DNA of 64,000 bases from Clostridia bacterium (GTDB lineage: Bacteria; Bacillota; Clostridia; Oscillospirales; CAG-272), in contig JAFTLJ010000014.1 in assembly GCA_017456005.1 (NCBI GenBank), forward strand, positions 17,310 to 81,309. Reading direction: 5' to 3'. Shown in pieces: positions 9,627 through 43,351 of the stretch. The position numbers and the translations under genes were made by a program. The notes under the pieces were generated by a model. The model was given only the letters and a program-made list of their open reading frames with translations, ran no database searches and was not told the DNA's origin. How positions within the stretch are numbered: the first letter of the stretch is position 1; each line of letters starts with the position of its first letter.

Positions 9627-11387
9627 CGGGTCGCCGCCGCTGATAACGTTGACACGGAAAACCTTATCGCGCCTTTTTTTGGCGGATTGGGCTGCCACGG
9701 TGGAAAGCTCCTCTGCGGCTTTTTCGATATTTTCCGTGCCGAGGTTAAAATTTACGGCTTGCTTTTCTTTTTCGAAGTGTTCTATTTTACCCGTGCGCAG
9801 AAGCTCGTCTACGTCTGCCTTCAGCTTTATTTCTATGACATCCTCGTAAACGATTATCCTGTCGATGATAAGGTGCAGGTCGCGCTTGTCGAGCTTTTCC
9901 TTTTCGAGTATGTCGCTGAATATGTCGATGACCGTTCTTGCCACGCGGTTCACCTTCGTGATGGTGTTGGTGGTGTTTGCCACCATAGCGAGCTGATTTT
10001 CAAGCCCGTCTATGCGGTTGTTTGCTTCTTCTATGAGCGCGTCGTAGGTTTCTTCTATTATGCGTGCATCGCCCGATGCACGCGCAACGTCGCGTATTTT
10101 TTGGCGCATCATAACCTTTAGCTCGGCGCGTTCTTCCTCAATTTGCTTGCGCAGCTCGTCTGCGGCTTGCATTCCGCTTTCCGTCGTGCGCTTTTCGAAG
10201 TTCAGGTTCTCCTGCAAAATGCGGAGCATTTCGGCGGAATTATCCCTTACCTTGCGGATATACTCTTTTAAGAGGCTATCGAGAAAATCCACGCGGATGT
10301 GGTGCGAGGTGCACCCGGCCGTGCCCCTTACGTGGTAAGTTCCGCAGGTGTATGCGGGCGCGAGATTTTTGCGGCTCATAGCAAACATTGGCGAACCGCA
10401 ATCGCCGCAGAAGAGGAAGCCGGAGTAGGTGTTGTCGTATTTTTTCACACCGCGATAGTTGCTTTTCGTGCGCTGTGCGAGCTGTTCCTGCGCTGTGGCA
10501 AACACTCTGTAATCCACTATTGCTTCGTGGTGGTTTTCAAATACGATATGCTCGCTTTTGTCCAGCTCCACATCGTTGCCGTTGATTTTCTTGCGGCGGT
10601 ATTTGTGCTCGCGCAGCGTACCTATATAGAAATCGTTGTTGATTATTTCGGAAACGGTGACTATGCTCCACTGCTCGCGCACCTTACCCTTGTATTCGTC
10701 TCCCTGCGCCTCCTTGCGTGCGCGTTCGCACATTCTCGGCGTGGGGATGTGCTTGTCTGTGAGGTGGTTGGCTATTTTTTGGTAGCCCCAGCCGTCGATA
10801 TAGAGGTCGAAAATAGTCCTCACCACCTCTGCGGCGGGCTTGTCCACCTCAAAGCTCATTTTTTTGGAGTTGGTCATAACGTACCCGTAGGGAACAGAGC
10901 ATATCCACTCGCCCTTTGCCTGCCTGCTGGCGATAACGTCGGAAACCTTGCGGCTGGCATCGGTAACGGGCATTTCGTTCACGAAGAAGTAGAGCTTTAT
11001 TTTCATCCAGTCGTCCGTGTGGTCCTGGTAATAGTCCACGCCGTCGCCTATGGCTATTATGCGTATATCGTGCTCGGCGATGTCCTCAAATTCTGCCAGC
11101 CCCTTGCCCGTGCGCCTCGAAAAACGGCTAAGGTCCTTTACGATTAGTATATCGTACTCGCCGCGCAGAAGCTTCGGGCGGAGCTTTAAATAATAATCTG
11201 GGCGTTGCTCAAAGGTATAGCCCGAATGGTCGCGGTCTTCATAGTAATCCACGTCGCTTGTGGGAAAATGGAGCTTACAGTAATCTCCGATAATAGCCTT
11301 CTGGTTTTCGATACTCGTGTTGTCCTTGTCGAGCTCAAGGTCAACTGAAATACGCGTATAGGCTGCTATTTTAAAACGCTCTAACAA
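9174..11387 (-). CDS. large serine recombinase (about 587 aa) fused in frame to the spoVT 3' segment
   Basis: The ORF carries a resolvase catalytic motif (AAYTRISV, VKDLSRFSRR), a recombinase domain, a zinc ribbon (CGDCGSPM...CGTYHVRGTAGC) and a coiled coil. TTG start after GGAG. The last 150 aa are SpoVT-derived. Confidence 0.9.
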   Translation of the reverse strand: MLERFKIAAYTRISVDLELDKDNTSIENQKAIIGDYCKLHFPTSDVDYYEDRDHSGYTFEQRPDYYLKLRPKLLRGEYDILIVKDLSRFSRRTGKGLAEFEDIAEHDIRIIAIGDGVDYYQDHTDDWMKIKLYFFVNEMPVTDASRKVSDVIASRQAKGEWICSVPYGYVMTNSKKMSFEVDKPAAEVVRTIFDLYIDGWGYQKIANHLTDKHIPTPRMCERARKEAQGDEYKGKVREQWSIVTVSEIINNDFYIGTLREHKYRRKKINGNDVELDKSEHIVFENHHEAIVDYRVFATAQEQLAQRTKSNYRGVKKYDNTYSGFLFCGDCGSPMFAMSRKNLAPAYTCGTYHVRGTAGCTSHHIRVDFLDSLLKEYIRKVRDNSAEMLRILQENLNFEKRTTESGMQAADELRKQIEEERAELKVMMRQKIRDVARASGDARIIEETYDALIEEANNRIDGLENQLAMVANTTNTITKVNRVARTVIDIFSDILEKEKLDKRDLHLIIDRIIVYEDVIEIKLKADVDELLRTGKIEHFEKEKQAVNFNLGTENIEKAAEELSTVAAQSAKKRRDKVFRVNVISGGDPLEIYTDREGEVIFKKYSPIGELMDFAAEYAETLYKTCNMPVAVCDKDCIIACAGVPKKEFLEKKNSHSLEKIIEARSLYTDENSAEKVHPTEENDSCHISCAMPIFTEGDVIGCVMSLAGEGTKGECPGRETEIKLIQTAASFLGKQLEA
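9606..9655. other. left junction of element (att site half: core CGGGTCGCC 9627-9635)
   Basis: The 9-bp core is identical to 43253-43261. The element-side arm ACGTTGACAC (9646-9655) is the inverted complement of 43234-43243. Confidence 0.8.
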
Positions 11388-11412
11388 TATTGTATTCTCC
11401 TTTCAAAGGTTA

Positions 11413-12801
11413 TTATGAACGGACATACTTTTGATTTTTACTGCTTGGCTTGTCCGGGATAGTTCTGAGCAGCTTTTTTGTTTCGAGTAAGGGGTTCAAG
11501 TATGTGCGTGTAAAATAAGTTAGATTGTTAAAGCCGAGATGTTCACAAATTTCACGCTTGCTTCTTGGTTTTGTGCAAAATTCCAAAATCATCTTAGTCA
11601 CATCTTGGTCACTATCCTGGTCACTATCTCGGTTGCTGAGTGACTGAGATGAATAATTTATATTCTTTAAAATAACGAAGAATGATGAATTGGTAGAATG
11701 GAATGTGGGCTTGAATTCATCAGTATATCCGGGTAATCTTGCGGTTCCTTCTAGAATTTTCCTGAATCCGCTGCCTTGGCGTTCCATATATCCCAAGCGA
11801 CCAAAAATGTCAGCGAGAATAGGGTTGCGACGTGTGGATGATACGTTAGATATATCTCTTTCTTGTATCAGTGTTCCGTCTGCCATACCGCCGGGGGAAT
11901 AAATCGTTAGGCGGTCATCGTAAATATCAATATGGATCTCGCTTCCAAGCACTGTATAGTCGCGGTGAATAAGAGCGTTTACGAGTGCTTCAAAAACGCT
12001 TCGTTCACAGTAATCGGGCATTTCGATGCGAGAATTTGATGTTTTCTTCCAACGTGTTTTCATATTTCGCTTTACAAAGCCAATACCTTCATTAAGCAAG
12101 ATTATCAAACTGCCGGAATATTCTGCGCTGTCCAGAGCGTCAATAACGCCTCCGCTTTTGTCAAGACCGTTCCAGCGTGTGCAGAACAATCGCGAATGGC
12201 GAATAGGAGAACTGTCTGCCAACAGTGCACCTGCATTTGTGAGTTTTCCGTTTTTATCACGCATTTCAAAGGAATCGAACAGCTTATCTTCCATACTGTT
12301 ACCTGTCCAAGCTTTATATTGCTCGCGCATTTTAGAAAAAGCGTAATCCTTGAAATCATATTCTGAAATGAGTGCATCGTAGGTGAGATTCATTCCTTTT
12401 AAAAGCAACTGGTTTAACACGTAGTCGGGCGCAATTACGCTTTCATTGCCTATTCGGATATAGGCTTCTGTTATTCCGTCTGCTTTATAGTAATATGGCG
12501 TTGAGCGTCCTGGATAAACTGTAAGCACCAACAAGTCTTTTCCGTTTTCTTTTTCGGGGGTAAGAACAAAATTCGGAAAAGGCGTGATACGCTCTTTTAT
12601 CAATCGGCTGATATTTTCTGCATCGCTTTGAATATTGTTGAGTCCAATAATGTTTTTATCATTATCAATTCCGAAAAACAGTGTGCCACCGATACCATTT
12701 GCAAAGGCACTGACGCTTTTGAGCCAACTCTTGGGCTTTTTTGTTTCCAATGCAACTTTAAAATCACATTCGGTTGCTTCTGCAATCCATTTGCCTATCA
12801 T
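11413..12801 (-). CDS. AlbA_2 (Schlafen-like) plus HATPase_c_4 domain protein, COG2865-type putative regulator/ATPase
   Basis: 462-aa ORF. It has an N-terminal AlbA_2-like region (SVSAFANGIGGTLFFGID), a central ALVNALIHRDY motif and a C-terminal wHTH-like tail. Confidence 0.65.
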   Translation of the reverse strand: MIGKWIAEATECDFKVALETKKPKSWLKSVSAFANGIGGTLFFGIDNDKNIIGLNNIQSDAENISRLIKERITPFPNFVLTPEKENGKDLLVLTVYPGRSTPYYYKADGITEAYIRIGNESVIAPDYVLNQLLLKGMNLTYDALISEYDFKDYAFSKMREQYKAWTGNSMEDKLFDSFEMRDKNGKLTNAGALLADSSPIRHSRLFCTRWNGLDKSGGVIDALDSAEYSGSLIILLNEGIGFVKRNMKTRWKKTSNSRIEMPDYCERSVFEALVNALIHRDYTVLGSEIHIDIYDDRLTIYSPGGMADGTLIQERDISNVSSTRRNPILADIFGRLGYMERQGSGFRKILEGTARLPGYTDEFKPTFHSTNSSFFVILKNINYSSQSLSNRDSDQDSDQDVTKMILEFCTKPRSKREICEHLGFNNLTYFTRTYLNPLLETKKLLRTIPDKPSSKNQKYVRS

Positions 12802-12867
12802 AAATTTTCGTCCTTTCTAATTGCTTGTGACAATATTGAATTAACTTTACAATTATCTTTCGATAAC

Positions 12868-12896
12868 ATTGTACCATATAAACCGCAGAAAGTCAA
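12868..12896 (-). promoter_or_regulatory. sigma-A-type promoter driving the 12801-9174 transcription unit
   Basis: Minus strand reads TTGACT-N17-TACAAT with TGG extended -10. Confidence 0.55.
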
Positions 12897-12954: not shown

Positions 12955-13007
12955 AAAAATAGTGAAAAAATAGTGAAAATTAGTGTAAAAATAGTGTAAA
13001 AATAGTG
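12955..13007 (+). repeat. five phased 10-11-bp direct repeats (AAAATAGTG core)
   Basis: aaaaatagtg / aaaaaatagtg / aaaattagtg / taaaaatagtg / taaaaatagtg, immediately upstream of the fic promoter region. Confidence 0.85.
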
Positions 13008-13069
13008 GAATTTTTTGAAGCTATGGTGTATAATAATTTATAGACAATATATTGTAAGGGAATGGTGTT

Positions 13070-14167
13070 ATGGTAAAAGTAATATTGACAAATGAAGCGC
13101 TAAAACGGATTTCTGCCATTGAGGAGAGCCGATTTTCGCTGAAAACGATAGATTTGCCGCAAATTACAAAAAACAGACTTCGTAAAAATTCAAAAAAGAA
13201 AAGCTCGTATGCTTCCAATAAAATAGAGGGCAACCCGCTTACCGAGGCACAGGCGAACGAAGCGATGGAAAGAGATGTTCACAAGCATTTTCTCAAACCC
13301 GAGCAAGAAGTTCGAAATTACTTTTTGGCTTTGAATTTGCTTGAAGAAAAGCTTAAAGCAAAAACACCTTTTTCGAAAGAATTGCTTCTTGAGGTGCAGG
13401 CAATGGTGGAAAAAGGTGCGCCGAAGGAAAAAATCGGGCTCAGAGGCGAAATGCCGCCCGGTGTGCTGTTTGCTGTTTATGATTCGGAAAGCGGATTGCC
13501 GGAATATATCCCTCCGGAATATACGGATATTCCGCAGCTTCTTGATGAGCTTGTTGAATACGTTAATTCCACAGACGACCATCCGCTCATTATTGCGGCT
13601 GTCGTGCATTATCAACTTGTCACAATACATCCATTCGAAGATGGCAACGGGAGAACTGCGAGATTGATGTCGGGGTACATTTTGGATATGTACGGTTACG
13701 GATTTAACGGTATAGGCTCTTTGGAAGAATACTTTGCATATGACCCCGATGAATATTATTCCTCGCTTCAGATGGGTTTGCCCGCACTGTATTATTCAGG
13801 CAGGGACAATCCTCCGCATTTTGAAATTTGGCTGAATTATTTTTTGCGTATGATGGAATTGTATTCTAAAAAAGTATGCGAAATATCGAAAGAAGCGAGC
13901 GAAGACGAGCTTGCGGGAAGTTTATCGTATTTGAATATAAAAGAAAAAGAACTGCTATCATTTCTTCTTCAACATCGCATATATGAATTTACACCTATTG
14001 AAATCAGCAAGCAGCTCGGGGTGACGAACAAGACTGTAATCAATCGGTGCGCCAAACTTACTACAAGTGGGTTTTTGGTGCCGAATATTGTAAAAGAGAG
14101 AGTGCGTTCATACTCGCTTACGGATTTTGCAAAAAGCAATGCAAAACAAATCGTTTCGTTGTATTGA
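13070..14167 (+). CDS. Fic family protein (class II, N-terminal inhibitory motif) with C-terminal wHTH
   Basis: Fic motif HPFEDGNGRTARL. Inhibitory-helix motif SNKIEG matches [ST]xxxE[GN]. Confidence 0.9.
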   Translation: MVKVILTNEALKRISAIEESRFSLKTIDLPQITKNRLRKNSKKKSSYASNKIEGNPLTEAQANEAMERDVHKHFLKPEQEVRNYFLALNLLEEKLKAKTPFSKELLLEVQAMVEKGAPKEKIGLRGEMPPGVLFAVYDSESGLPEYIPPEYTDIPQLLDELVEYVNSTDDHPLIIAAVVHYQLVTIHPFEDGNGRTARLMSGYILDMYGYGFNGIGSLEEYFAYDPDEYYSSLQMGLPALYYSGRDNPPHFEIWLNYFLRMMELYSKKVCEISKEASEDELAGSLSYLNIKEKELLSFLLQHRIYEFTPIEISKQLGVTNKTVINRCAKLTTSGFLVPNIVKERVRSYSLTDFAKSNAKQIVSLY

Positions 14168-14446: not shown

Positions 14447-14712
14447 TCAGCAAAGCTCCTGTTGCGGCTCTTTCCTTGCCATCACTTCCGCGTTATGCTT
14501 CAAAAGCTCGCCCGTGAGCATCGTAAGGTCGCACGTGCCCGATTCAAACAGAACTATGCGGTACTTCTTTTGCCTGTATTCGTCGTATAAAGGCTTCAGC
14601 CTTTCGCGCAAGGCTTCACTTGCCGACTCCGCTTTGGTAAGCCATACCGAAACGTATTTTTTGTCGTCGTGTACGTTTATCTCTATATAGCTCGCCCCCT
14701 TTGTTCTATCAT
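14447..14712 (-). pseudogene. small element-borne ORF disrupted by a frameshift in a G5 run
   Basis: ATG at 14712 gives MIEQRGRAI-stop. The adjacent frame reads ASYIEINVHDDKKYVSVWLTKAESASEALRERLKPLYDEYRQKKYRIVLFESG... to a TGA at 14447. One extra G in the run at 14695-14699 would join the two frames. Confidence 0.5.
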
Positions 14713-14779: not shown

Positions 14780-16912
14780 TTATAAGGTTTGTTCAAGTTG
14801 TTTTCGCTTTTTCTGCGTTTTAGGCATGGTGGTGCAATCTTCCGGCACACGGTAGCTTTCTATATTTGCAAGCCCTGCGACGATGTCTAAAATATCCGTG
14901 GCAACGGCGAGTGCTGCGTTCTGCGCCATTCGCGCAAGAGCCACGGCGGCTGGCTCGCACCCTGCCTGCGCCGAGCGGTTGAGGCATTCTATGGCCTTTT
15001 CTATATCAAATATATCCGCCTCGAAAAGATAAGCTTGCGCCAGGCGGTAGTCGGCATACATATTTCCGCGTGCCGAAGCAAGCTCCAAGTGTTCTATGGC
15101 TTTGGCTATATTCTTCTTTACGAGCTTGCCTTCCATATAATATTTGCCGAGGGTGTATGCCGCAAACTCGCTCCCTGCGCTCTCGGCGCGGAAAAGGTGG
15201 CGGAATCCTTTGCTGTGGCTTTCGCCGAACAGGTCGCTTTCCACATAGAGCTTGCCGAGCAGGGCATCGGCAGAAGTGCTTCCGTTTTGCGCGGCTTCCG
15301 AGAGCCATTTTTCCGCTTCAAGCTCGTCCTCCCTATAAACAATGCCGTAAAGAAACATCTTGCCCGTGCGGTACTGCGCCACAGAATAGCCCTTTTCTGC
15401 GGCTTTTGTGAGGTAAATTTCGCCGAGCGCTTCGTTGTAATGCCCGCTGTTTTTATCGAAATAAACGCGCGAAAGGCGATACATAGCGTATACGTTTCCG
15501 AGTCGTGCTTGCTCCTTAAGACGATATATCGAGGTGCCGTTCTCTTGCTCGTCCCCGTCGAAAGGCATATCATCATATAAAGTAGCCTCATCGGGGAAGA
15601 AGCCGCTTATTTCATCAGCAGAGAGATTAGTGCCGCCGTGAGCGCCGAAAGCGCTGCCGAGCCTGCTATCGCCCCAATTATCCAGCGCTTCATCTCGGAG
15701 ATCAGAGCCGAGAATGCCTCCGTATAGCTCTCCGTCGCGGCGTTCAGCTTCGAGAAAAATTGCTCGCGCTTCCTCCCATCCTGTAAAAGCGTTTCCTTGT
15801 TCTCTGCAAGCAGATCCTGCACTTTCGGTACTATACTGCCCGCCGAGGTCTTCACGTCGCGGCTCAGCCTGCCCGACCATTCCTCGATTATCGCCCACAT
15901 CTGCGAAAGGTCCTCCTGCGTTGCCACTTTCCCCTCCAGCGCCGCGAATTTCTCGTACATATTCGGCTGGAATTCCGCCGAGGCTTTCATATATTTGAAG
16001 AAATCCTCCCATATCCTCTCCGGAATCGCATACACTATCGGGCGGTAGGGCGTTTCCTCCACCGTCTTTATCGCTGTTTCCGTGCATTGCTTCAGCTTCG
16101 AAAGCGCTGTGTTTGCCGTGGGTTTGTTCTCTGATTGTAAATTCATATTCCATATTCTCCTTTAAAAATTTAGTTTCGTGCAGGCTCTTGTCACGCACCT
16201 TCATTCCGTTCGGGCAGGTGTAGGTTATGTGCTTTCGGCTGTCCGTCCACGTAACGCCATAGCCTACCGACTCCATAAGCGCGATAAAATCCTGTTTTGT
16301 GCCTGCCATTGTCATCGCTTTTTCGATGTTGTTTATACATTTGAATTTCCAGCTCTCGCCCCTCAGCGCGGAGCGATATTCTCTTGTGTTTATAGCTTTT
16401 GTGCCGAAGCTCTGCTTGTATTCGGGCAGGACGGAAAGGTTGTGCGCGCGGCATATTTCGTCGCTGATTTTTCGCATTTGCTCAAGCGAATGTGTGCCGA
16501 GCTGCAGCTTTTTGCCGTTTTCGAAGCTTACGCTGTTTATAACGAAATGGTTGTGCACACGCTCGGCACCGTCGCTTTCCGCATCGAGATGCGTGCCCAC
16601 GAGAACCTCATAGCCCGCGAACATCCGCGCGGCAAGCTCCGTGCCGATTAGGTGCGCCTCATCGTAGGAGGCGATCTCACCCGGGCGGAAGGATTGCTCG
16701 TAGTGGTAGAAATACGTTCCCTTGCATTTGCCGAAAAGGTTTTTTGTCGCCATAAACTCTTCGAAAGCCGCCTCGCCCATACAGTTTACGCCCGAAAGGT
16801 AACGCCTGCCGTTTTTATCGACCGTCTTTGTGTCCTGTGAAACGTAGCGGATCACCGCGCGCATAGAGCTTTCGTTTTGCTTTGTTTCTCTTATAAAGTT
16901 ACACGTTGCCAC
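14780..16912 (-). CDS. relaxase/mobilization nuclease (MobA/VirD2-type) with C-terminal Sel1-like repeats
   Basis: Histidine triad region THLDAESDGAERVHNHFVINSV. The C-terminus carries at least 5 Sel1/TPR-like repeats (YRLSRVYF, AQYRTGKMFLYG, LGKLYVE, LGKYYMEG, YRLAQAYLF). GTG start at 16912 overlaps the mobC stop. Confidence 0.8.
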   Translation of the reverse strand: MATCNFIRETKQNESSMRAVIRYVSQDTKTVDKNGRRYLSGVNCMGEAAFEEFMATKNLFGKCKGTYFYHYEQSFRPGEIASYDEAHLIGTELAARMFAGYEVLVGTHLDAESDGAERVHNHFVINSVSFENGKKLQLGTHSLEQMRKISDEICRAHNLSVLPEYKQSFGTKAINTREYRSALRGESWKFKCINNIEKAMTMAGTKQDFIALMESVGYGVTWTDSRKHITYTCPNGMKVRDKSLHETKFLKENMEYEFTIREQTHGKHSAFEAEAMHGNSDKDGGGNALPPDSVCDSGEDMGGFLQIYESLGGIPAEYVREIRGAGGESGNAGGPFADVGDNRGMVGQAEPRREDLGGQYSTESAGSACREQGNAFTGWEEARAIFLEAERRDGELYGGILGSDLRDEALDNWGDSRLGSAFGAHGGTNLSADEISGFFPDEATLYDDMPFDGDEQENGTSIYRLKEQARLGNVYAMYRLSRVYFDKNSGHYNEALGEIYLTKAAEKGYSVAQYRTGKMFLYGIVYREDELEAEKWLSEAAQNGSTSADALLGKLYVESDLFGESHSKGFRHLFRAESAGSEFAAYTLGKYYMEGKLVKKNIAKAIEHLELASARGNMYADYRLAQAYLFEADIFDIEKAIECLNRSAQAGCEPAAVALARMAQNAALAVATDILDIVAGLANIESYRVPEDCTTMPKTQKKRKQLEQTL
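15607..16146 (-). CDS. internal alternative-frame ORF (179 aa, helical, C-terminal hydrophobic helix)
   Basis: ATG lies 10 nt after AAGGAG. Its codon third positions resemble the flanking genes, and the amino-acid composition is realistic. It overlaps the low-complexity middle of the relaxase ORF. Confidence 0.5.
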   Translation of the reverse strand: MNLQSENKPTANTALSKLKQCTETAIKTVEETPYRPIVYAIPERIWEDFFKYMKASAEFQPNMYEKFAALEGKVATQEDLSQMWAIIEEWSGRLSRDVKTSAGSIVPKVQDLLAENKETLLQDGRKREQFFSKLNAATESYTEAFSALISEMKRWIIGAIAGSAALSALTAALISLLMK

Positions 16913-17264
16913 TACTCTCGCCTTCCGTTTCCGTGGGCATATTTCCGCTGGCAATAGCGCCGTTTGCTTCTTCGAAGAGGCAGTTTATCGCCGTATAATT
17001 TCTGCAAAGTGCATCTTTGGCGGCGGTCAGGTTTACCGTGTCCACTTGCCCCAGGTGCGAGAGCATAGTGAGCTGATTTAAGTTCCTGCCGATGGCTTTC
17101 AGCTCGCGGAGCGTGGGCTTAAGCTCTTCTATCTGGTAAATATTTTTGCCCAGAGCCGCCGCCAGCAGGTATTCACGCTGTGTCATACCCGAGCGCGCTA
17201 CAGCTTTTGAAATTTTGTTTTTCTCGGCCTCGCTTGCCCAAAAAGATATTTTCTTGTCGCGCAA
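16899..17264 (-). CDS. mobC: MobC-family relaxosome accessory protein
   Basis: RHH-like N-terminus and the motif ELKAIGRNLNQLTMLSH, typical of the bacterial mobilisation protein MobC. It lies directly upstream of the relaxase. Confidence 0.8.
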   Translation of the reverse strand: MRDKKISFWASEAEKNKISKAVARSGMTQREYLLAAALGKNIYQIEELKPTLRELKAIGRNLNQLTMLSHLGQVDTVNLTAAKDALCRNYTAINCLFEEANGAIASGNMPTETEGESSGNV

Positions 17265-20736: not shown

Positions 20737-20747
20737 GGTTTCTTCCT

Positions 20748-23334: not shown

Positions 23335-23347
23335 GGAGATATAGCAT

Positions 23348-23908: not shown

Positions 23909-23984
23909 TTTTAATTTTCTGTAATCAGAAAATACGATTCAAAAACGTGTTTTGCGTAACTTTTATAAGGAGAAAACAAAGACG

Positions 23985-30335: not shown

Positions 30336-30398
30336 TATACCTTATTATAAACATTATAAACTCGACGGTCATGGTCTTCAAAAAAGGAGAGACGATTT

Positions 30399-31325: not shown

Positions 31326-31360
31326 ATTTTATATAACTTGTGATTTGGAGAGGGGTAAAT

Positions 31361-32569: not shown

Positions 32570-32626
32570 TATGCTCTATAGTATCGAATATGGATTTTAT
32601 TATTTACGGTAATCAAAAGGGGTTAT

Positions 32627-34165: not shown

Positions 34166-35123
34166 ATCTGTGATTAAAAAAATTATTATTCAGAGAAACG
34201 GATCGAAGAAAAAATTAAATTCTGAGTATTTGAAAAAATACGATAAATATTCTTTCAGAGGAACGAATTGTACGAATGTTCAGCAATATGAAGCGGTAAT
34301 AACGCGGCTTTATCATTCTATTGAAAAGGGTCTTTCGTATCAGAATTATAGGGTTGGCTTCGGAAAGGCGAATATCGAAGCTTTGCTATCAACTCTGGAA
34401 AAATACAGCTCTGAAATGAAAGATTATGATGTCTTCTTTTATCGAACAGCACTTTCAACATTGTTTGAATATATTAAAAAGAACAAAGAACATGGACATT
34501 TTGATGAGAATTTGGAACAAAGAGTAAAAGCTTTGCCTGGAAATCCCAATATTTTGGGTGGGATTATTAAATTTGAACCATTAACGGAAGAGAATGTCCA
34601 AAAATTGAATTTTAACGATTTTCTGAAGGATAGACATAGTATCAGACATTTTTCGGGTGTCCCTGTAGATGTTGAAAAATTGAAGGCGGCAGTGCGCTTG
34701 GCTCAGTATACTCCTTCTGCGTGTAACAGACAAGGGTGGCGAACCCGTATTATTGCAAATAAAGATTTACTGAACAAAGTGTTGAGCAATCAAAATGGAA
34801 ATACAGGCTTTGGTCAGGAAATTGATAAACTTCTTATTGTTACAACGGATATCCGATATTTTAACAGAGACAGAGAAACCTACCAAGCGTTCATTGATGG
34901 AGGTATGTACGCAGAAAATCTAATCAATGCGTTGCATTTTTACCATATTGGCTCCATTCCACTTAGCGCTTCTTTGACAAAGGAACAGGAAACCAACGTG
35001 AGAGACTTCATCGGAATGGATGATGCGGAAGTGCTGATTTTGTTTATTGGCGTAGGATCATATCCGGAACAGTGTCAGACAACCAGATCTGAAAGACGTG
35101 ATGCGGAAATCACAGTGCTTTAA
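34155..35123 (+). CDS. nitroreductase family protein
   Basis: RHSIRHF...PSACNRQGWR, nitroreductase-fold motifs in the C-terminal half. Confidence 0.75.
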   Translation: MGIKSVIKKIIIQRNGSKKKLNSEYLKKYDKYSFRGTNCTNVQQYEAVITRLYHSIEKGLSYQNYRVGFGKANIEALLSTLEKYSSEMKDYDVFFYRTALSTLFEYIKKNKEHGHFDENLEQRVKALPGNPNILGGIIKFEPLTEENVQKLNFNDFLKDRHSIRHFSGVPVDVEKLKAAVRLAQYTPSACNRQGWRTRIIANKDLLNKVLSNQNGNTGFGQEIDKLLIVTTDIRYFNRDRETYQAFIDGGMYAENLINALHFYHIGSIPLSASLTKEQETNVRDFIGMDDAEVLILFIGVGSYPEQCQTTRSERRDAEITVL

Positions 35124-36009: not shown

Positions 36010-38973
36010 ATGACCCACACATCACTATTCCTCTCCCAATCCTATTTGGACACATGGGACGACTACAAACGCTCACTCACGCGCGATAACTTCGCGCGCT
36101 GGGATTACGTAATACTCACCGCCTCGAACCCCCAGCAGGCGCAGGGCTTTGAGGCTCAGATAGCGGAGCGCAAAAAGGCAGGTTTTTTGCCCCGCAACAC
36201 GCATTTTGCCGTTATCCCCGACAGGGACGGCAAGCGCATCGGAAGCGGCGGTGCGACGCTCGGCGTTATCAAATATATAGCGGAGCACACCGGAAAGAGC
36301 GATTTCTCGGGACTTCGCATACTCGTTATACACTCGGGCGGCGACTCTAAAAGAGTACCGCAGTATTCGGCTCTCGGCAAGCTCTTTTCGCCTGTCCCAC
36401 ATGAGCTTCCCAACGGCAGAGCCGCAACGCTTTTCGATGAATTCATGATCGCCATGTCGAGCGTTCCCTCCAGAATCCGCGAGGGTATGCTCCTGCTCTC
36501 CGGTGACGTGCTCTTGCTTTTCAATCCCTTGCAGATTGACTACAGCGGCAACGGTGCTGCGGCTATATCCTTCAAAGAAGACGTTGAAACGGGCAAGAAC
36601 CACGGCGTGTTCTTGAACGGCGAAAACGGCAAGGTCGCAAAGTTCCTGCATAAGCAGACGGTAGAATCCTTGCGCGCATACGGCGCCGTAAACGAGCGCG
36701 GTGCGGTCGATATCGACACTGGCGCCGTAATATTCTCCACGGATATGCTCGCCTCTCTCTACTCGCTCATTTCGACGGATGCTGACTACGATAAATATGT
36801 GAACGATACTGTTCGCCTTTCTCTCTACGGCGACTTCCTTTATCCGCTCGCTACGGAATCCACTCTCGAACAGTTCTATCTTGAAAAACCCGAGGGCGAA
36901 TTCTGCGACGAGCTTCACGAGGCTCGCACAGCAGTGTGGGAAGCTCTGCGTCCCTATAGACTCAAGCTCTTGCGCCTCGCGCCTGCGAAGTTTATCCATT
37001 TCGGCACGACGAATGAGATACTCAAGCTCATGTCGGGCGGTATCGACCAGTACAAGGAGCTCGGCTGGAGCAAGCATGTAAACAGCAGCATCACAAGAGC
37101 TACAGCGGGCTACAACAGCGTTCTGTCGAGCAGAGCCAAGGTCGGCAAGGATTGCTACCTTGAGGTCTCTTACGTTCACAGAAACGCTAAAATTGGCGAT
37201 AACGTAGTTCTTTCCTACATAGACATACACGATGAAGAAGTGCCTTCCGACGTAGTCCTCCACGGACTCAAGCAGAAGGACGGCAAGTTCGTAGCGAGAA
37301 TCTACGGCGTCAAGGATAACCCGAAGGAAGACAAGCTCTTCGGTATGCCCATCTCCGAATTCCTTGCTAAAAACGGCATAGATGTTTCCGAGCTCGGTGC
37401 CGACTACAACGGCACTCTCTGGACGGCGGATATGTATCCCGCTTGCGACACGATAGTTGAAGCGGTAGCGGCGGCGCTCAATATCTACGATATGGCGCAT
37501 GACGGCGGCGATGTTGATGCGTGGAAAAACTCTGTTCGTAAATCCCTCTGCTCGGGCTTCAATGCTGCAGACCCCGAAGCGATAATCGCTTGGGACAACC
37601 GCATGCAGGAGCTTGTACGCATGGACGGTATTGCAAAGCTCATCATCTCGGGCAGACCCGCAAGGGAAGCGAAGGACGTTCTGCGCTCGAACAAGCTCAC
37701 TCCCGTGCAGGAGCAGTGGCTTGAAAAAAGACTTGAAGCCGCTGACTTTGCGGAAACGATAAGACTTTACTACTACATAGGAACGGCGCTCGGCGGCATT
37801 GAGGGCGAGAAGCTTCTCGGCAAATGCTTCGACACCATTTCCGAAACTATACTCAAAGGAACAATAGACAATCTTCAGTATAACGAAAACTGCAAGATAA
37901 CAACAGATAAACACACCGTAAAACTTCCTCTGCGTGTAAACTGGGGCGGCGGTTGGTCCGATACCCCCCCGTATTGCAACGAAAAAGGTGGCACTGTACT
38001 TAACGCGGCGATACTCTTAAACGGCGAAAAGCCCGTTGAAGTAACGCTCGAAATAATAGATGAACACAAAATCGTATTCGACAGCCGCGATATGGACGTA
38101 CACGGCGAATTTGACAGCATCGAGCCTTTGCAGGCTACGGGCGACCCGTACGACTCATTCGCACTTCAGAAGGCGGCGCTTCTCGCGTGCGGAATACTCC
38201 CGAAAGAGGGCGGCGACCTTGACGAGATTCTCACTCGCCTTGGCGGCGGCTTCGTGATGCATTCCGAGGTAACTAACGTACCGAAGGGAAGCGGTCTTGG
38301 CACGAGCTCCATTCTCTCCGCGGCTTGCGTAAAAGCGATATTCGAGTTTATGGGTATCGAGCATACGGAGGACGACCTCTACCAGCACGTTCTCGTTATG
38401 GAGCAGATTATGTCCACGGGCGGCGGTTGGCAGGACCAGGTAGGCGGTGTTACACCGGGAATCAAGTATATCACGACGATGCCTGGTATCGCGCAGAAGA
38501 TAAAGGTTTCCCACGTAGAGATACCCGAAGAAACCAAGAAGGAGCTCAACGAGCGCTTCGTGCTTATCTACACGGGTCAGCGCAGACTTGCGAGAAACCT
38601 GCTTCGCGACGTTGTGGGCAGATACGTAGGCAACGAGCCCGACTCGCTCTTCGCTCTCAACGAGATACAGAAAACGGCGGCTCTTATGAAGTTTGAGCTT
38701 GAGAGAGGTAATGTGGAAGAATTCGCAAACCTTCTCAACTACCACTGGGAGCTTTCTCAGAAGGTGGATAAAGGCTCTACGAATACACTTATCGACCAGA
38801 TATTTGCAAGCGTTGACGAATTTGCGGCAGGCAAACTCGTTTGCGGCGCGGGCGGCGGCGGCTTCCTCCAGATGCTCCTTAAGAAGGGCGTGGACAAAGC
38901 TGACGTGCGCGCGAGACTCAAGGAAGTATTCCAAGATTCCGCAGTCGATGTCTGGGATTGCACTCTCGTGTAA
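36010..38973 (+). CDS. fkp: bifunctional L-fucokinase / fucose-1-phosphate guanylyltransferase
   Basis: 987-aa ORF. It combines an N-terminal fucose-pyrophosphorylase-like domain with a C-terminal GHMP kinase (PKGSGLGTSSILSAA). This is the same architecture as Bacteroides Fkp. Confidence 0.8.
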   Translation: MTHTSLFLSQSYLDTWDDYKRSLTRDNFARWDYVILTASNPQQAQGFEAQIAERKKAGFLPRNTHFAVIPDRDGKRIGSGGATLGVIKYIAEHTGKSDFSGLRILVIHSGGDSKRVPQYSALGKLFSPVPHELPNGRAATLFDEFMIAMSSVPSRIREGMLLLSGDVLLLFNPLQIDYSGNGAAAISFKEDVETGKNHGVFLNGENGKVAKFLHKQTVESLRAYGAVNERGAVDIDTGAVIFSTDMLASLYSLISTDADYDKYVNDTVRLSLYGDFLYPLATESTLEQFYLEKPEGEFCDELHEARTAVWEALRPYRLKLLRLAPAKFIHFGTTNEILKLMSGGIDQYKELGWSKHVNSSITRATAGYNSVLSSRAKVGKDCYLEVSYVHRNAKIGDNVVLSYIDIHDEEVPSDVVLHGLKQKDGKFVARIYGVKDNPKEDKLFGMPISEFLAKNGIDVSELGADYNGTLWTADMYPACDTIVEAVAAALNIYDMAHDGGDVDAWKNSVRKSLCSGFNAADPEAIIAWDNRMQELVRMDGIAKLIISGRPAREAKDVLRSNKLTPVQEQWLEKRLEAADFAETIRLYYYIGTALGGIEGEKLLGKCFDTISETILKGTIDNLQYNENCKITTDKHTVKLPLRVNWGGGWSDTPPYCNEKGGTVLNAAILLNGEKPVEVTLEIIDEHKIVFDSRDMDVHGEFDSIEPLQATGDPYDSFALQKAALLACGILPKEGGDLDEILTRLGGGFVMHSEVTNVPKGSGLGTSSILSAACVKAIFEFMGIEHTEDDLYQHVLVMEQIMSTGGGWQDQVGGVTPGIKYITTMPGIAQKIKVSHVEIPEETKKELNERFVLIYTGQRRLARNLLRDVVGRYVGNEPDSLFALNEIQKTAALMKFELERGNVEEFANLLNYHWELSQKVDKGSTNTLIDQIFASVDEFAAGKLVCGAGGGGFLQMLLKKGVDKADVRARLKEVFQDSAVDVWDCTLV

Positions 38974-38985
38974 GGGGGTGGGGAT

Positions 38986-39411
38986 ATGCTGAAGAATATT
39001 TCCCCCATCATCTCCCCGATGCTCCTCAAGGTCCTGTGCGAAATGGGACACGGCGACGAGATAGTTCTTGCAGACGCGAACTTCCCCTCGGAGAGCATCG
39101 CTCATAACAATCAGATAATACGCGCGGACGGCATCGGCGTTCTGGACCTCCTTAACGCCATCCTCCCGCTTTTCCCGCTCGACCAGTATGACAGTGAAAA
39201 CTTCATCGTCATGCAGGTCGTGGACGGCGACCCCATCCCGACGATATGGGATGAATTCAAGAAGATCATCGACAAATACGAACCCGAATGCAGTATGACG
39301 TTTATTGACAGATTCGACTATTACGAAAGGTCAAAAAAAGCTTACGCGGTAATCGCCACCGGCGAAAAAGCGCAGTATGCGAATGTGGTGCTGAAAAAAG
39401 GGGTTATTTAA
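38986..39411 (+). CDS. fucU: RbsD/FucU family sugar mutarotase
   Basis: 141-aa ORF with the motif GHGDEIVLADANFP. Confidence 0.85.
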   Translation: MLKNISPIISPMLLKVLCEMGHGDEIVLADANFPSESIAHNNQIIRADGIGVLDLLNAILPLFPLDQYDSENFIVMQVVDGDPIPTIWDEFKKIIDKYEPECSMTFIDRFDYYERSKKAYAVIATGEKAQYANVVLKKGVI

Positions 39412-39437
39412 AACATTATGTCGGAGGAAGTTTTTCT

Positions 39438-40613
39438 ATGACCGCATACGAAACATTTGAACAAACCTACCGTAAGCCACCTGAATACACCACATTTACC
39501 CCATACCGTATCTGCCCGCTCGGTGCTCATTCCGACCATCAGCTCGGCAAGATAACGGGCTTTGCCATTGACAAAGGCATACATATCGCGTACGGACCGA
39601 AGCAGAACGGTATTATTGAGATACAGTCCGTGCAGTTCCCGAAGCGAGCGCAGTGGCACGTAGCGTCCACCCCTTCCGAGAAGCAGGGAGACTGGGCCGA
39701 CCACCTTCGCGGTGCTACAATAGCTCTTAACAGCCGCTATCCTCTGCGCACAGGCCTTTGCGCGGTGCTCGACGGCGAGCTTCCGATAGGCGGTCTTTCC
39801 TCGTCTGCGGCGGTGATTATCACTTTTCTATCGGCCCTCTGCCAGATGAATGGTATTCACTTGACAGAATCAGAGCTTGTGCAGATATCGCTCGAAGCAG
39901 AGAATAAATACGTCGGCGTTTCCTGCGGCAAGCTCGACCAGAGCTGTGAGGTATATTCCAGAAAGGACAACCTCCTTTATATGGACCTCAAGGATGACAG
40001 CTACGAGCTTATCCCTCAGCATCCCGACATGAAGCCGTATAAGATAGCGATATTCTTCAGCGGCTTGGAGCGCAGTTTGGCAAGCTCGAAATTCAATATG
40101 CGCGTTGACGAATGCCGTTCCGCTGCATATGCCCTTATGGCATATGCGGGAATGGACTACGGCAAATTTAATGAAACAAACTTGCGTGACGTTCCCAGAG
40201 AAGTATACGAGCAGTATAAGGACAAGCTTCCCGAAAACTGGCGCAAACGTGCCGAGCATTGGTACACTGAATTTGACCGTGTGCAGAGAGGCGCCGAAGC
40301 ATGGCGCAGAGGCGATATAGAAGAATTCGGCAGACTTTCGTTCGAAAGCGGACACTCGTCTATCTACAACTGGGAAACAGGCTCTCCCGAGCTTATCAAG
40401 CTCTATGAGATTATGACCAAGACTCAAGGCATCTACGGCGGACGCTTCTCGGGCGCAGGCTTCAAGGGCTGTTGCATGGCGCTTATCGATCCTGCTTACG
40501 AAGAAAGCATCGTAGAAAAAGTAACACGCGAATATCTCGCGGCGTTCCCCGAGCTTGAGGGAAAATATTCCGCACATATCTGCGAAAGTGCAGACGGAGT
40601 AAAACTCCCATAA
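39438..40613 (+). CDS. galactokinase-family (GHMP) sugar-1-kinase, substrate unknown
   Basis: Motifs PLGAHSDHQ, PIGGLSSSAAV, NMRVDEC and GGRFSGAGFKGC. Confidence 0.8.
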   Translation: MTAYETFEQTYRKPPEYTTFTPYRICPLGAHSDHQLGKITGFAIDKGIHIAYGPKQNGIIEIQSVQFPKRAQWHVASTPSEKQGDWADHLRGATIALNSRYPLRTGLCAVLDGELPIGGLSSSAAVIITFLSALCQMNGIHLTESELVQISLEAENKYVGVSCGKLDQSCEVYSRKDNLLYMDLKDDSYELIPQHPDMKPYKIAIFFSGLERSLASSKFNMRVDECRSAAYALMAYAGMDYGKFNETNLRDVPREVYEQYKDKLPENWRKRAEHWYTEFDRVQRGAEAWRRGDIEEFGRLSFESGHSSIYNWETGSPELIKLYEIMTKTQGIYGGRFSGAGFKGCCMALIDPAYEESIVEKVTREYLAAFPELEGKYSAHICESADGVKLP

Positions 40614-40751
40614 GGAAGTTTTACAAAAAAACTTAATACATAAAACCAAAAGCTTTGGCGAGAACCTTAGGAACGAACACGTTTGACTAAAGTTTTTTTG
40701 CCAAGCTTTTTTTCAAAAAAGCGAAAAAAACAGCGGAGGAATGAACTAAAC

Positions 40752-41486
40752 ATGAAATGTCTTATACTTGCGGCGGGATATGCAACTCGCCTTTACCCAC
40801 TCACGGAAAACTTCCCGAAACCTTTGCTTGAAGTAAAAGGGAAGACCATACTTGACTGGCTGATTGACGACATCGACACGCTCGGCGCGGTTGACGAATA
40901 CATTGTTATCTCAAACCATAAATTTGCTCACCATTTCGATAAATGGGCTGCTGAAAAAACGCAGAAAGTAACCGTTGTTGACGACGGCACAAGCACGAAC
41001 GAAACCAGGCTCGGTGCTGTTAAAGATATACAATATGCTATTGATAAGCTTGGGCTCGATGATGATATACTCGTAATTGCAGGTGATAATTTGCTCGACT
41101 TCAGCCTCACTGAGTTTATCAAATATGCGAAAGCTAAAAATAGCTCCTGCATCATGCGTTACTATGAAGCAAACGAGCAGAAGCTTCTCAAATGCGGCGT
41201 CGTAACGATCGATGAAAACGATAAGATACTCGAAATGACAGAGAAATCTCCTACACCTGCAACGCATTGGTGCACGCCTCCTTTCTATTTTTACACGAAA
41301 GAAGATGCAAAACTTGTTCAGGCAGGAATAGATTCAGGATGCGGCGTTGACGCTCCCGGGAGCTACATCGCATGGCTCTGCAAGCAGACGAACGTTTATG
41401 CTATGGAAATGCCCGGCAAACGCTATGACATAGGCAACCTTGAAAGCTACGAAAAAGTGCAGAAGGAGTATAACGGAATATGCTGA
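40752..41486 (+). CDS. sugar-1-phosphate nucleotidyltransferase
   Basis: MKCLILAAGYATRLYPLTENFPKPLL, an NTP-transferase signature. ATG after GGAGG. Confidence 0.85.
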   Translation: MKCLILAAGYATRLYPLTENFPKPLLEVKGKTILDWLIDDIDTLGAVDEYIVISNHKFAHHFDKWAAEKTQKVTVVDDGTSTNETRLGAVKDIQYAIDKLGLDDDILVIAGDNLLDFSLTEFIKYAKAKNSSCIMRYYEANEQKLLKCGVVTIDENDKILEMTEKSPTPATHWCTPPFYFYTKEDAKLVQAGIDSGCGVDAPGSYIAWLCKQTNVYAMEMPGKRYDIGNLESYEKVQKEYNGIC

Positions 41487-42562
41487 CACCTAACGTAAAT
41501 CTCACAGGAAAAACGGTTCTCGTTACGGGTGCGGCTGGCTTTGTAGGCGCTAACCTCGTAAAAGAACTTCTTAACACAGTAGAAAAGATACACATCGTCG
41601 GTATCGACAATATGAACGATTACTACGACGTGTCCATCAAAGATTACCGCCTCGCTGAAATAGAAAAACTCGCGGCGGAAAAGACTGGTTGCAAATGGAC
41701 TTTCGTGAAGGGCAATATCGCCGATAGAGCGCTTATCGACAGACTTTTCGCCGAATACGGATTTGCGGTAGTCGTAAACCTTGCGGCTCAGGCGGGCGTA
41801 AGATATTCCATCACAAACCCCGACGTGTACATAGAATCCAATATCATCGGCTTCTATAACATACTAGAAGCATGCCGCGCAAATCCCGTTGAGCATCTTG
41901 TTTACGCGTCAAGCTCCTCGGTATACGGTTCAAACAAGAAGATACCTTATTCCACCGACGATAAGGTTGACAATCCCGTGTCCCTCTACGCGGCTACGAA
42001 GAAAAGCAACGAGCTTATGGCTCACGCTTACTCGAAGCTTTACAATATCCCGTCCACGGGACTTCGCTTCTTCACGGTATACGGTCCTGCAGGCCGTCCC
42101 GATATGGCTTACTTCGGATTTACGAACAAGCTTCGTGAGGGTAAGACTATTGAAATATTTAACTTCGGTAACTGCAAACGCGACTTTACATACGTTGACG
42201 ATATAGTTACAGGCGTTAAGCACATTATGCAGAACGCTCCCGAAAAAGTAACGGGTGAAGACGGACTTCCCGTACCTCCTTACAGAGTTTACAATATCGG
42301 TAACAACAGCCCCGAAAATCTGCTTGACTTCGTTGATATCCTTCAGCAGGAGCTTATTTGTGCTAAAGTTCTTCCCGAAGACTATGACTTCGAAGCTCAT
42401 AAAAAGCTCGTTCCAATGCAGGCGGGTGACGTTCCGATAACGTATGCTGATACAAGTGCGCTTGAAAGAGATTTCGGCTTCAAGCCGAACACGAGCTTGA
42501 GAGAGGGCTTGAGGAAGTTTGCTGAGTGGTACTATGAGTTCTATCTCGAAAAAGGTGAATAA
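41480..42562 (+). CDS. NAD-dependent epimerase, UDP-glucuronate 4-epimerase-like
   Basis: GAAGFVG, SSSSVYG, YAATKKSNE (YxxxK) and RFFTVYGPAGRPDMA. Confidence 0.7.
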   Translation: MLTPNVNLTGKTVLVTGAAGFVGANLVKELLNTVEKIHIVGIDNMNDYYDVSIKDYRLAEIEKLAAEKTGCKWTFVKGNIADRALIDRLFAEYGFAVVVNLAAQAGVRYSITNPDVYIESNIIGFYNILEACRANPVEHLVYASSSSVYGSNKKIPYSTDDKVDNPVSLYAATKKSNELMAHAYSKLYNIPSTGLRFFTVYGPAGRPDMAYFGFTNKLREGKTIEIFNFGNCKRDFTYVDDIVTGVKHIMQNAPEKVTGEDGLPVPPYRVYNIGNNSPENLLDFVDILQQELICAKVLPEDYDFEAHKKLVPMQAGDVPITYADTSALERDFGFKPNTSLREGLRKFAEWYYEFYLEKGE

Positions 42563-42576
42563 ATATATAGATTACC

Positions 42577-42606
42577 AAGGACATCTGCATGCAGATGTCC
42601 TTTTTG
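42577..42606 (+). terminator. terminator at the end of the polysaccharide operon
   Basis: AAGGACATCTGCATGCAGATGTCCTT followed by TTTT. Confidence 0.75.
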
Positions 42607-42695
42607 CCAATTGTCAATGGCTCACCGATACATTGACAATATGGTGCTTTCGTGGTATCATAAATATACATTCAGCTACAAACTTGCGAGGATTT

Positions 42696-43136
42696 ATGTA
42701 TATGGATGATATTAAGCAAAAATTATGCCCTAATTGCCGGGCGAATGTGGAAGGCTTGGTGCACAGGTGCAATTGTTGCGGTGCAACTCTTGATAAAAAG
42801 CCGTCGTTTTTCATTTGGCATACTTATATGACACAGGAAAGCGGAGATTTACAAGCTTTAACCAAAAAAATCTTTGATGAGAAAGCTGTGCCCGAAAACC
42901 CGGATCATCTTGAGCATGTGAAGAAAATCATTTTCGATATATATTGCTATCCGCAAGATATGCTTGGGGATATGACAAACAAGGTGATCTGCTATAGAAC
43001 GAAAAAAGAATGCCGTATCAGAATTGTTTTAGATTATGAGAAGTATATATCTTCAAATTCTTTTGAAAAAACAGAGATGATTACCGATGGTATTATTGCA
43101 GGGATAGAACTGTTTGAAAGTAGATTTAAAAAATAA
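42696..43136 (+). CDS. hypothetical protein with N-terminal CxxC...CxxC zinc-ribbon
   Basis: 146-aa ORF (MYMDDIKQKLCPNCRANVEGLVHRCNCCGATL...). It is the last gene of the element before the right junction. Confidence 0.55.
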   Translation: MYMDDIKQKLCPNCRANVEGLVHRCNCCGATLDKKPSFFIWHTYMTQESGDLQALTKKIFDEKAVPENPDHLEHVKKIIFDIYCYPQDMLGDMTNKVICYRTKKECRIRIVLDYEKYISSNSFEKTEMITDGIIAGIELFESRFKK

Positions 43137-43146
43137 TAAATCATGC

Positions 43147-43175
43147 AAAAAAGCCTTATGTATCAAGGCTTTTTG
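43147..43175. terminator. bidirectional hairpin terminator at element right end
   Basis: AAAAAGCCTT/AAGGCTTTTT. It contains the stop codon of the truncated spoVT' ORF. Confidence 0.6.
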
Positions 43176-43351
43176 CTGTTTAAACCCGCTCTATCGCCAA
43201 AATCGATCATCGCTATGCAGAACCTTTCTGTCTGTGTCAACGTCATCTGCGACGGGTCGCCCTCGCGAATACGCATGGTTCTTCTTATTTCTTTAGGTAT
43301 AACGACTCTTCCGAGGTCGTCGATACGTCTTACAATACCGGTAGCTTTCAT
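43163..43351 (-). CDS. truncated SpoVT' (33 native codons plus a 29-codon element-encoded tail)
   Basis: 62-aa ORF MKATGIVRRIDDLGRVVIPKEIRRTMRIREGDP + SQMTLTQTERFCIAMIDFGDRAGLNSKKP. Confidence 0.6.
   Translation of the reverse strand: MKATGIVRRIDDLGRVVIPKEIRRTMRIREGDPSQMTLTQTERFCIAMIDFGDRAGLNSKKP
43227..43270. other. right junction of element (core CGGGTCGCC 43253-43261)
   Basis: The core is identical to 9627-9635. The element-side arm is GTGTCAACGT (43234-43243). The 11-mer TCTGTCTGTGT (43227-43237) also occurs at 9606-9616. Confidence 0.8.
43253..43351 (-). pseudogene. spoVT: spoVT 5' segment (codons 1-33, AbrB-type swapped-hairpin N-terminus)
   Basis: MKATGIVRRIDDLGRVVIPKEIRRTMRIREGDP is nearly identical to the B. 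subtilis SpoVT N-terminus. GGAGG RBS upstream. Confidence 0.9.

Follow-up and report, generated by a model that had tools for sequence, protein, structure and literature searches.

A predicted mobilizable element splits the sporulation gene spoVT and exchanges the tail of its own recombinase for SpoVT residues

Here we describe a 64,000-nucleotide stretch of a Clostridia bacterium genome (GenBank assembly GCA_017456005.1, contig JAFTLJ010000014.1, positions 17,310 to 81,309 of the forward strand; hereafter the window), in which the sporulation gene spoVT is divided by an inserted element. Both parts of spoVT lie on the minus strand at the two ends of this element, and each is read in frame with a part of the large serine recombinase (LSR) that the element encodes. 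The locus thus holds two hybrid open reading frames (ORFs), one on each side of the insertion. The features concerned are the following (attL and attR denote the attachment sites at the two junctions).

9627-43252 (no strand assigned): inserted element, 33,626 bp with one copy of the 9-bp core counted, delimited by its junctions and by synteny with the empty site in a sister species (L089).
43253-43351 (minus): spoVT 5' part, codons 1-33, first half of the AbrB-like DNA-binding domain (translation; Pfam MazE_antitoxin at residues 7-32).
9174-9626 (minus): spoVT 3' part, codons 34-183 and stop, second half of the AbrB-like domain and SpoVT_C (translation, Pfam).
43253-43261 (minus): core GGCGACCCG at the junction with the spoVT 5' part (attL; sequence).
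9627-9635 (minus): core GGCGACCCG at the junction of LSR and spoVT 3' part (attR; sequence).
9174-11387 (minus): 737-codon ORF with LSR residues 1-587 in frame with SpoVT residues 34-183 (Pfam Resolvase, Recombinase, Zn_ribbon_recom, SpoVT_C).
43163-43351 (minus): 62-codon hybrid ORF and stop, SpoVT residues 1-33 followed by the 29-residue native C-terminal tail of the LSR (SQMTLTQTERFCIAMIDFGDRAGLNSKKP; sequence).

That codons 1-33 (43351-43253) and 34-183 (9626-9174) are the halves of a split spoVT had been proposed in an earlier reading of the window from its sequence alone (hereafter the sequence-only reading), and both translations were reproduced exactly. Deletion of the interval at the 9-bp core gives, as that reading had claimed, a full-length SpoVT collinear with the Bacillus subtilis protein: the joined 183-residue product contains AbrB/MazE and SpoVT_C domains (Pfam) and matches B. 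subtilis SpoVT (PDB 2w1t, 178 residues) over its full length, residues 1-182 on 1-177 with E = 2.4e-50. The SpoVT_C match and the 2w1t alignment exclude the possibility, raised in advance as a potential refutation, that 9174-9626 is not homologous to the SpoVT C-terminal domain. The element, integrated through its LSR, entered spoVT at codons 31-33; these encode R-E-G-D-P, a loop of the AbrB-like domain that hardly varies, and the protein is broken at a position that we take to lie between the two β-hairpins of this domain.

Uninterrupted spoVT alleles, which it had been suggested should be sought in relatives, are found at the syntenic site of a sister species (P0254; L089-L091), where an intact gene, 87% identical, is surrounded by the same neighbour genes as both flanks of the window. 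The gene order at this empty site (L089) is Tmk, FtsK, a 181-residue ORF, a long sigma-70-like protein, small ORFs, spoVT, a Na/Ca exchanger, DegV and ilvBNC. Because the same flanking genes surround the intact sister-species spoVT, the interval is an insertion into a formerly continuous gene, and while the element is integrated the locus cannot encode intact SpoVT. An assembly error, also named beforehand as a potential refutation, is excluded since the junction ORFs recur in many independent assemblies: independent assemblies contain at least 18 sequence variants of the fusion ORF that spans the junction, and junction ORFs are present in assemblies from ENA, Logan, JGI and NCBI. When genomes were scanned with the joined SpoVT, all of the 80 best matches were intact and at most 79% identical, and none of them came from the source species.

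The LSR gene (11387-9627) has no stop before the junction, and its reading frame continues through SpoVT residues 34-183. When the element ends are joined in silico, a 616-residue LSR ending in the 29-residue tail is obtained. Since the LSR gene contains in its 3' end the element's own attachment site (attP), read in the frame of spoVT, integration swaps the ends of the two genes: the LSR exchanges its native 29-residue tail for SpoVT residues 34-183, and SpoVT residues 1-33 receive the LSR tail. The 737-residue fusion and the 62-residue hybrid are identical to NCBI MBQ7290365.1 and MBQ7290394.1, respectively, both from a 'Clostridia bacterium' metagenome-assembled genome (MAG). The exact 62-residue protein is present on 30 contigs, and the variants in its cluster are nearly all 62 residues long.

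An LSR at one end of the element had been noticed before and is confirmed by its Pfam domains. The catalytic domain (Resolvase, residues 8-160) contains the Y-x-R-x-S serine motif, with AAYTRISVD invariant in the family alignment, and is followed by Recombinase (185-306), Zn_ribbon_recom (321-378) and a long C-terminal region. The protein matches the PHROG 95 integrase with E = 5.6e-85, and its closest solved relative in the PDB is SprA of SPbeta (E = 4e-21). The reconstructed attP has inverted arms, GTGTCAACGT and ACGTTGACAC, which are symmetric around a central GA within the 9-bp shared core; inverted arms around a central dinucleotide and short identity to the host site (attB) are characteristic of the attP sites, of ~50 bp, of large serine recombinases. 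Conservation of the 29-residue tail near the junction is accounted for by the inverted arms of attP, which lie there. We also considered the tail as a mimic of the missing β3-β4 of the AbrB fold and found this unsupported, the Pfam alignment of the 62-residue hybrid ending at residue 32.

The fusion is common. All 120 of the best database matches to it (69-99% identity) share the four-domain architecture; some of its clusters at 90% identity hold 185, 572 and 1058 sequences, and clustering at 50% yields four full-length fusion clusters together with junction-spanning fragments. The closest non-fusion LSRs, 44-47% identical, have tails homologous to the tail of the window's excised-form LSR. 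One of them (P0282) is encoded in a free phage genome (L092) alongside NrdD, dUTPase, endolysins and a reverse transcriptase. The attP of this phage has the same type of inverted arms, with core AGAGAAGGTGA, and we infer, from the phage sequence, that this core matches the spoVT codons for R-E-G-D in a presumed low-GC-host spelling. Other genes in the phage sequence (L092 1-21848) are of the SocA_Panacea and RelA_SpoT-like types; an HNH gene interrupts its anaerobic ribonucleotide reductase, and a second gene of the resolvase family, shorter than that of the LSR, is present. No relatives of the phage were found in IMG/VR. Fusion-bearing contigs are found in IMG/VR, one of them a prophage (L098) with tail sheath and tube genes, and a human-faecal 'Bacteriophage sp.' scaffold bears the fusion as well. 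A complete 10,021-bp island (L112) has both junctions and no relaxase, and carries as cargo a HepT/MNT toxin-antitoxin pair, a metallophosphatase and a 1008-residue discoidin-domain protein. The attP arm architecture of the window is matched in both L112 and the free phage. The family shares one integration module, composed of a sigma-A-type promoter, the LSR, an ORF of ~80 residues and an attP in the LSR 3' end, which has been combined variously with mobilization genes, phage genomes or plain cargo.

That the LSR frame runs into SpoVT, that the family is common and includes phages, and that a small partner ORF is conserved in it are new relative to the sequence-only reading. The latter knew of no described element that interrupts spoVT, and our search agrees: among openly accessible full texts, no paper was found that describes spoVT as an attachment site. 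The spoVT-targeting family is thus apparently undescribed so far.

Some members are irregular. One contig (L114 1-12211) has the LSR::SpoVT_C fusion and no spoVT 5' fragment within 10 kb upstream, where LacI and melibiase genes are found instead; this member may have decayed and lost its attL. Another fusion (P0310) has a normal junction (GDPLEIFTDRD…) followed by an arginine/glycine-rich stretch unlike SpoVT, a sign that its SpoVT part is frameshifted or was wrongly assembled. Among the cargo genes of a related mobilizable element (L003 3452-6409) is one for a 985-residue protein matching Pfam RdRP (PF05183, eukaryote-type RNA-dependent RNA polymerase), an unusual gene for a bacterial island.

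Within one 90% cluster, LSRs that are 97-99% identical are attached to SpoVT parts that are 0, 32-37 or 54.5% divergent, and in the window's own LSR lineage (LSRs 97-100% identical) the SpoVT parts diverge by 0-28%. LSR identity exceeds SpoVT_C identity in 94% of the 11,325 pairs formed by 151 fusions. Near-identical LSRs on divergent SpoVT parts imply recent horizontal spread. The same 62-residue hybrid occurs in three host backgrounds, with host parts 12-17 synonymous changes apart and unrelated upstream DNA; the element ends in these backgrounds are 3 nucleotides apart and carry the same Imm44-like, nucleotidyl-transferase and FucU cargo. Because the same cargo stands beside a near-identical element end in different hosts, the polysaccharide module travels with the element. 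Near-identical LSRs and element ends across host species are consistent with intercellular transfer, and the integration module appears, from these comparisons, to move between distantly related Clostridia. Occupied and empty alleles coexist in the same or sister species in several cases, with SpoVT parts 96-99% identical. The intact SpoVT proteins closest to that of the window, with 87-91% identity, are encoded by sister-species orthologues that occupy the syntenic site; the nearest intact allele is 89-91% identical.

Three further features bear on when the recombinase and its target are expressed.

12868-12896 (minus): sigma-A-type promoter TTGACT-N17-TACAAT (TG-extended) of the AlbA_2-LSR unit (sequence).
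14447-14686 (minus): homologue of a conserved ~80-residue partner ORF ('orf80'), candidate directionality factor, conserved next to the LSR.
43422-43449 (minus): forespore-type (sigma-F/G-like) promoter-like motif upstream of spoVT, GCATA-N14-GGGTATACT (sequence).

The sigma-A-like promoter that had been assigned to the recombinase unit (12896-12868) is present and conserved across the family. Its form TTGAC(A/T)-N17-TACAATG(T/A)T is kept in L003, L098, L100-L102, L092 and L112, a set that spans mobilizable elements, islands, a prophage and the free phage. The partner ORF, of ~70-81 residues, accompanies the LSR wherever the sequence extends far enough upstream, also in the free phage. For the window lineage, the protein collection contains it only as a truncated 54-residue call. 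Its AlphaFold model (pLDDT 74) has the order strand, strand, helix, strand, helix. Because of its position and its co-occurrence with the LSR, we would guess that it is a recombination directionality factor, a class described as structurally diverse (PMC11795197). Of 10 members, 3 have forespore-like motifs that precede the partner ORF by ~52-54 nt, and the match in the window is imperfect; these motifs are only a hint of a regulatory signal. The -10-like motif preceding the ORF is CAAAAATG in the window and CAAAAATA in L003.

The forespore-type motif upstream of spoVT is identical in a strain of the same species (L106) and is preceded by two terminators. In Clostridioides difficile, spoVT depends on SigF/SigG (PMC3738446, PMC7438776), and in B. 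subtilis, too, the gene is under these sigma factors and thus expressed in the forespore. Deletion of spoVT stalls sporulation in Bacillus cereus, where the cells lyse, and has a mild effect in B. subtilis (PMC5061766). Comparison of the window with the conspecific strain (98.1-98.5% identity in the host flanks, 97.2% in the element backbone) gives 5 differences in the SpoVT_C part, 5/5 of them synonymous, and 38 in the LSR part, with 8 non-synonymous nucleotide changes in 7 codons. If about three quarters of random changes are non-synonymous, the chance of 5/5 synonymous changes is ~0.001-0.003. On this count, the SpoVT_C coding sequence appears to be under purifying selection.

The remaining genes of the element are as follows.

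11413-12801 (minus): Schlafen AlbA_2 / HATPase_c_4 / Fic-like_C protein, accessory, between the conserved promoter and the LSR gene (Pfam).
13070-14167 (plus): Fic/DOC-HTH protein, accessory, divergent gene (Pfam).
14780-16954 (minus): MobA/VirD2-type relaxase with C-terminal Sel1 repeats (Pfam).
16899-17264 (minus): NikA-like/MobC relaxosome accessory protein (Pfam).
17652-19439 (minus): DUF927 protein, 595 residues, conserved backbone (Pfam; conserved in related elements).
20314-35123 (plus): polysaccharide cargo, with initiating sugar transferase, glycosyltransferases, acetyltransferases, Wzy-like, flippase-like, pyruvyl transferase and nitroreductase-like genes (Pfam).
36010-42562 (plus): nucleotide-sugar cargo, with fucose kinase/pyrophosphorylase, FucU, galactokinase-like, nucleotidyl transferase and epimerase/dehydratase genes (Pfam).
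42519-43136 (plus): Imm44-like protein, last gene before the junction with the spoVT 5' part (Pfam).

Pfam finds no type IV secretion system (T4SS) or coupling-protein families among the element ORFs of at least 80 residues, and no virion structural, packaging or lysis genes in the element, which sets it apart from a prophage. This agrees with the previous assignment, based on MobC and a relaxase without T4SS or phage genes, to mobilizable elements rather than prophages. With its LSR and att sites, relaxase, NikA/MobC protein and polysaccharide cargo, the element is predicted from its gene content to be an integrative mobilizable element. A search for an origin of transfer yielded candidate inverted repeats alone, and an Rfam scan of the whole window gave no match. 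The DUF927 protein was considered as a replication primase and rejected, as it has no similarity to the primase-like phage protein of L099 or to any PDB sequence. L003 and L112 have no AlbA_2 gene at the corresponding position. The Fic gene and the AlbA_2-LSR promoter diverge, and in the intergenic region that separates them (12955-13018) about six 10-11-bp units (AAAAATAGTG[T/A]) are iterated in a manner resembling an operator or iteron array.

The cargo comprises ~15 kb of polysaccharide genes and ~6.5 kb of fucose/galactose nucleotide-sugar genes; the fucose/nucleotide-sugar module is also found at the element end in another host species (L107). Of the complete Wzx/Wzy locus that had been reported here, the polysaccharide genes stand; completeness is only plausible, the Wzy_C and MatE (flippase-type) matches falling below Pfam thresholds. 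The conspecific L106 has the same backbone in a shorter element (~29.9 kb), with polysaccharide/fucose cargo that is differently composed and ordered and includes an acyltransferase_3 and a Polysacc_synt flippase. Judged by gene content, this difference suggests serotype-like cargo switching within the element.

Two genes outside the element, near spoVT, should be mentioned. A gene for a 297-residue HTH_3 protein (8138-9031, plus) lies directly downstream of the spoVT 3' part and outside the att site; it is also present in the conspecific L001 and L002 and absent from the sister species L089, where the Na/Ca exchanger gene directly follows spoVT. Two genes upstream of spoVT, a 552-residue protein (44777-46435, minus) combines sigma-70 regions 2 and 4 with a long C-terminal extension, and its position is kept in the sister species.

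We tentatively favour, at somewhat under even probability, a reversible disruption, in which precise excision restores spoVT in sporulating cells and the circle later reinserts. The LSR would recombine attL with attR precisely, probably with the partner ORF assisting as a directionality factor, and spoVT would be restored in the cells that sporulate. The excised circle would stay in the spore, where it can persist because the forespore does not divide, and after germination the LSR, expressed constitutively in vegetative cells and with its native tail regained, would reinsert it. It had been argued that forespore excision would strip the element from the germline; this needs the qualification that a non-dividing forespore could keep the circle for reintegration. 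Several observations weigh against reversible disruption. The partner ORF has no Pfam or PHROG match, and Foldseek against the PDB returned nothing below E = 0.5. In an Oscillospiraceae MAG (L077), a partner-ORF homologue (3250-3489) lies 1.3 kb upstream of an intact spoVT (4925-5464) with no LSR nearby; it is either left over from an earlier element or points to a function of the partner ORF that does not depend on the LSR. Other observations speak at the same time for plain insertional inactivation, which we regard as a serious possibility that falls clearly short of probable: spoVT would have been chosen as a highly conserved, growth-silent sequence, no excision would be programmed, and carriers would sporulate abnormally or rely little on SpoVT, the element persisting through horizontal spread and cargo. 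The LSR promoter is of a vegetative type and not sporulation-specific. JGI metagenomes gave 0 matches to a degenerate attP pattern and 0 to the exact attB of the window species (the predicted attP contains GTCAACGTTATCAGCGGCGGCGACCCGTCGCAGATGACGTTGAC and the predicted attB CGCGAGGGCGACCCGCTGGAAATA), and neither the exact joined SpoVT nor the exact excised-form LSR is in the protein collection, which thus holds no excision product for the window lineage. Every assembly of the window species seen (at least 7) is occupied. The partner ORF starts with ATA in the window (14684-14686, minus) and in the conspecific L001 (~6702), and with ATG or TTG in relatives, so that excision is probably infrequent in the window lineage. 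Given the mild phenotype of a spoVT deletion in B. subtilis, plain disruption might be tolerated. In favour of plain inactivation, L114 seemingly lacks the spoVT 5' side, and the SpoVT part of P0310 is scrambled. Against plain inactivation, thousands of fusions retain a full-length, Pfam-recognisable SpoVT_C, and spoVT is required to complete sporulation in B. cereus. The elements have also recently been excised and moved, which implies that the LSR can reverse integration in some setting. The 5 synonymous versus 0 non-synonymous changes in the split gene point the same way; the 5:0 count is small, and independent acquisition of the element by both strains, whose elements differ in size (33.6 versus ~29.9 kb) and cargo, would yield the same pattern. 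The idea that the element became locked in through loss of the partner-ORF ATG is weakened, the same LSR lineage being found in several host species; since the window lineage has spread between species, the ATA start is not proof of immobility.

Other explanations fare less well. One is that the genome contains another, intact spoVT or a gene that can stand in for it, so that the split copy would not matter; it gains some room from the fact that only 64 kb of the genome is visible. We nevertheless think it improbable: the closest intact proteins are the syntenic sister-species orthologues and not paralogues, the protein collection holds no closer intact copy, and the split copy shows synonymous change only. 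Still less probable is it that the split products are functional, with LSR::SpoVT(34-183) and the 62-residue protein reassembling or the tail replacing the missing β-hairpin. Both hybrid ORFs are open and conserved in length, and the presumed break between the two β-hairpins would suit such an arrangement. However, the tail lies outside the domain match of the hybrid, which stops at residue 32, its conservation near the junction is explained by the attP arms, and the promoters apparently differ, sigma-A-type for the LSR and forespore-type for spoVT. An assembly artefact or chimeric contig has practically no chance of being the explanation, being refuted by the recurrence of the same junction ORFs in many independent assemblies.

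A more elaborate form of regulated excision is, in our estimation, unlikely, if less so than the three explanations just discussed. Integration would make a two-part switch that senses both integration state and cell compartment, with reassembly of the SpoVT halves licensing excision in the forespore. Only the captured forespore promoter of spoVT would drive synthesis of the missing LSR tail, as an extension of SpoVT residues 1-33 (the first hairpin); SpoVT residues 34-183 on the LSR include the second AbrB β-hairpin, and pairing of the two would return the tail to the LSR in the forespore only. The excised circle would encode native LSR from the sigma-A promoter and would reinsert after germination. 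If true, such a switch would control directionality by itself, without a sporulation promoter in the element, and would be the first programmed rearrangement in the spore germline.

The described rearrangements of sporulation genes all take place in the disposable mother cell. The spoVT family sits in a gene needed in the forespore, a new kind of target that demands another solution, whether reversible excision with retention of the element, tolerated loss of SpoVT or a new control mechanism, and thereby raises the question whether DNA of the spore germline is rearranged reversibly or in a programmed way. In gut Clostridia of animals and humans the family is abundant, and it could influence sporulation efficiency and host-to-host spread; among the sizeable cargo that it carries between species are surface polysaccharide loci and toxin-antitoxin genes. 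A recombinase that alters its own C-terminus on integration offers a compact natural system for studies of serine-integrase directionality, and the conservation of the target site across spore-formers could make the module a broad-host-range integration tool for Clostridia.

Described sporulation gene-intervening elements have mother-cell target genes, are excised specifically in the mother cell and are kept by the spore (PMC4191935, PMC10747680); both sources list such targets only, in line with the sequence-only reading. Like skin in sigK, SPbeta in spsM, vfbin in spoVFB, vrin in spoVR, gin in gerE and yin in yabG, the element of the window is mobile or formerly mobile and lies inside the coding sequence of a sporulation gene; as in skin-type elements, a serine recombinase gene stands at one end, and the ORF would be restored if the element were cut out precisely at a short core. 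It differs from them in that its target, spoVT, is expressed in the forespore and not in the mother cell, in that it is by prediction a mobilizable island and not a prophage remnant, in that the LSR ORF spans attP so that integration generates two in-frame hybrid proteins, and in that developmental excision is only proposed. With integrative mobilizable elements of the Tn4451/TnpX type it shares an LSR module, a relaxase with an accessory protein, the lack of pore genes and variable cargo. Unlike these, it has a MobA/VirD2-type relaxase with Sel1 repeats and a NikA-like partner and a single strict target in spoVT, and its integration module also occurs in phages and in islands without mobilization genes. 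The active lysogeny of the Listeria comK prophage (cited in PMC10747680) offers a parallel, with an element inside a conditionally needed gene and, here as a proposal, reversible excision without loss. In contrast to that prophage, our case is a proposal from sequence, in which the trigger would be sporulation and the refuge the non-dividing forespore. Finally, in the mycobacteriophages BPs and Brujita, with their integration-dependent immunity, attP likewise lies inside a coding sequence and C-termini differ between the integrated and excised states; there a repressor is truncated by a tyrosine-integrase system, whereas here the recombinase itself swaps its C-terminus and gains a host domain.

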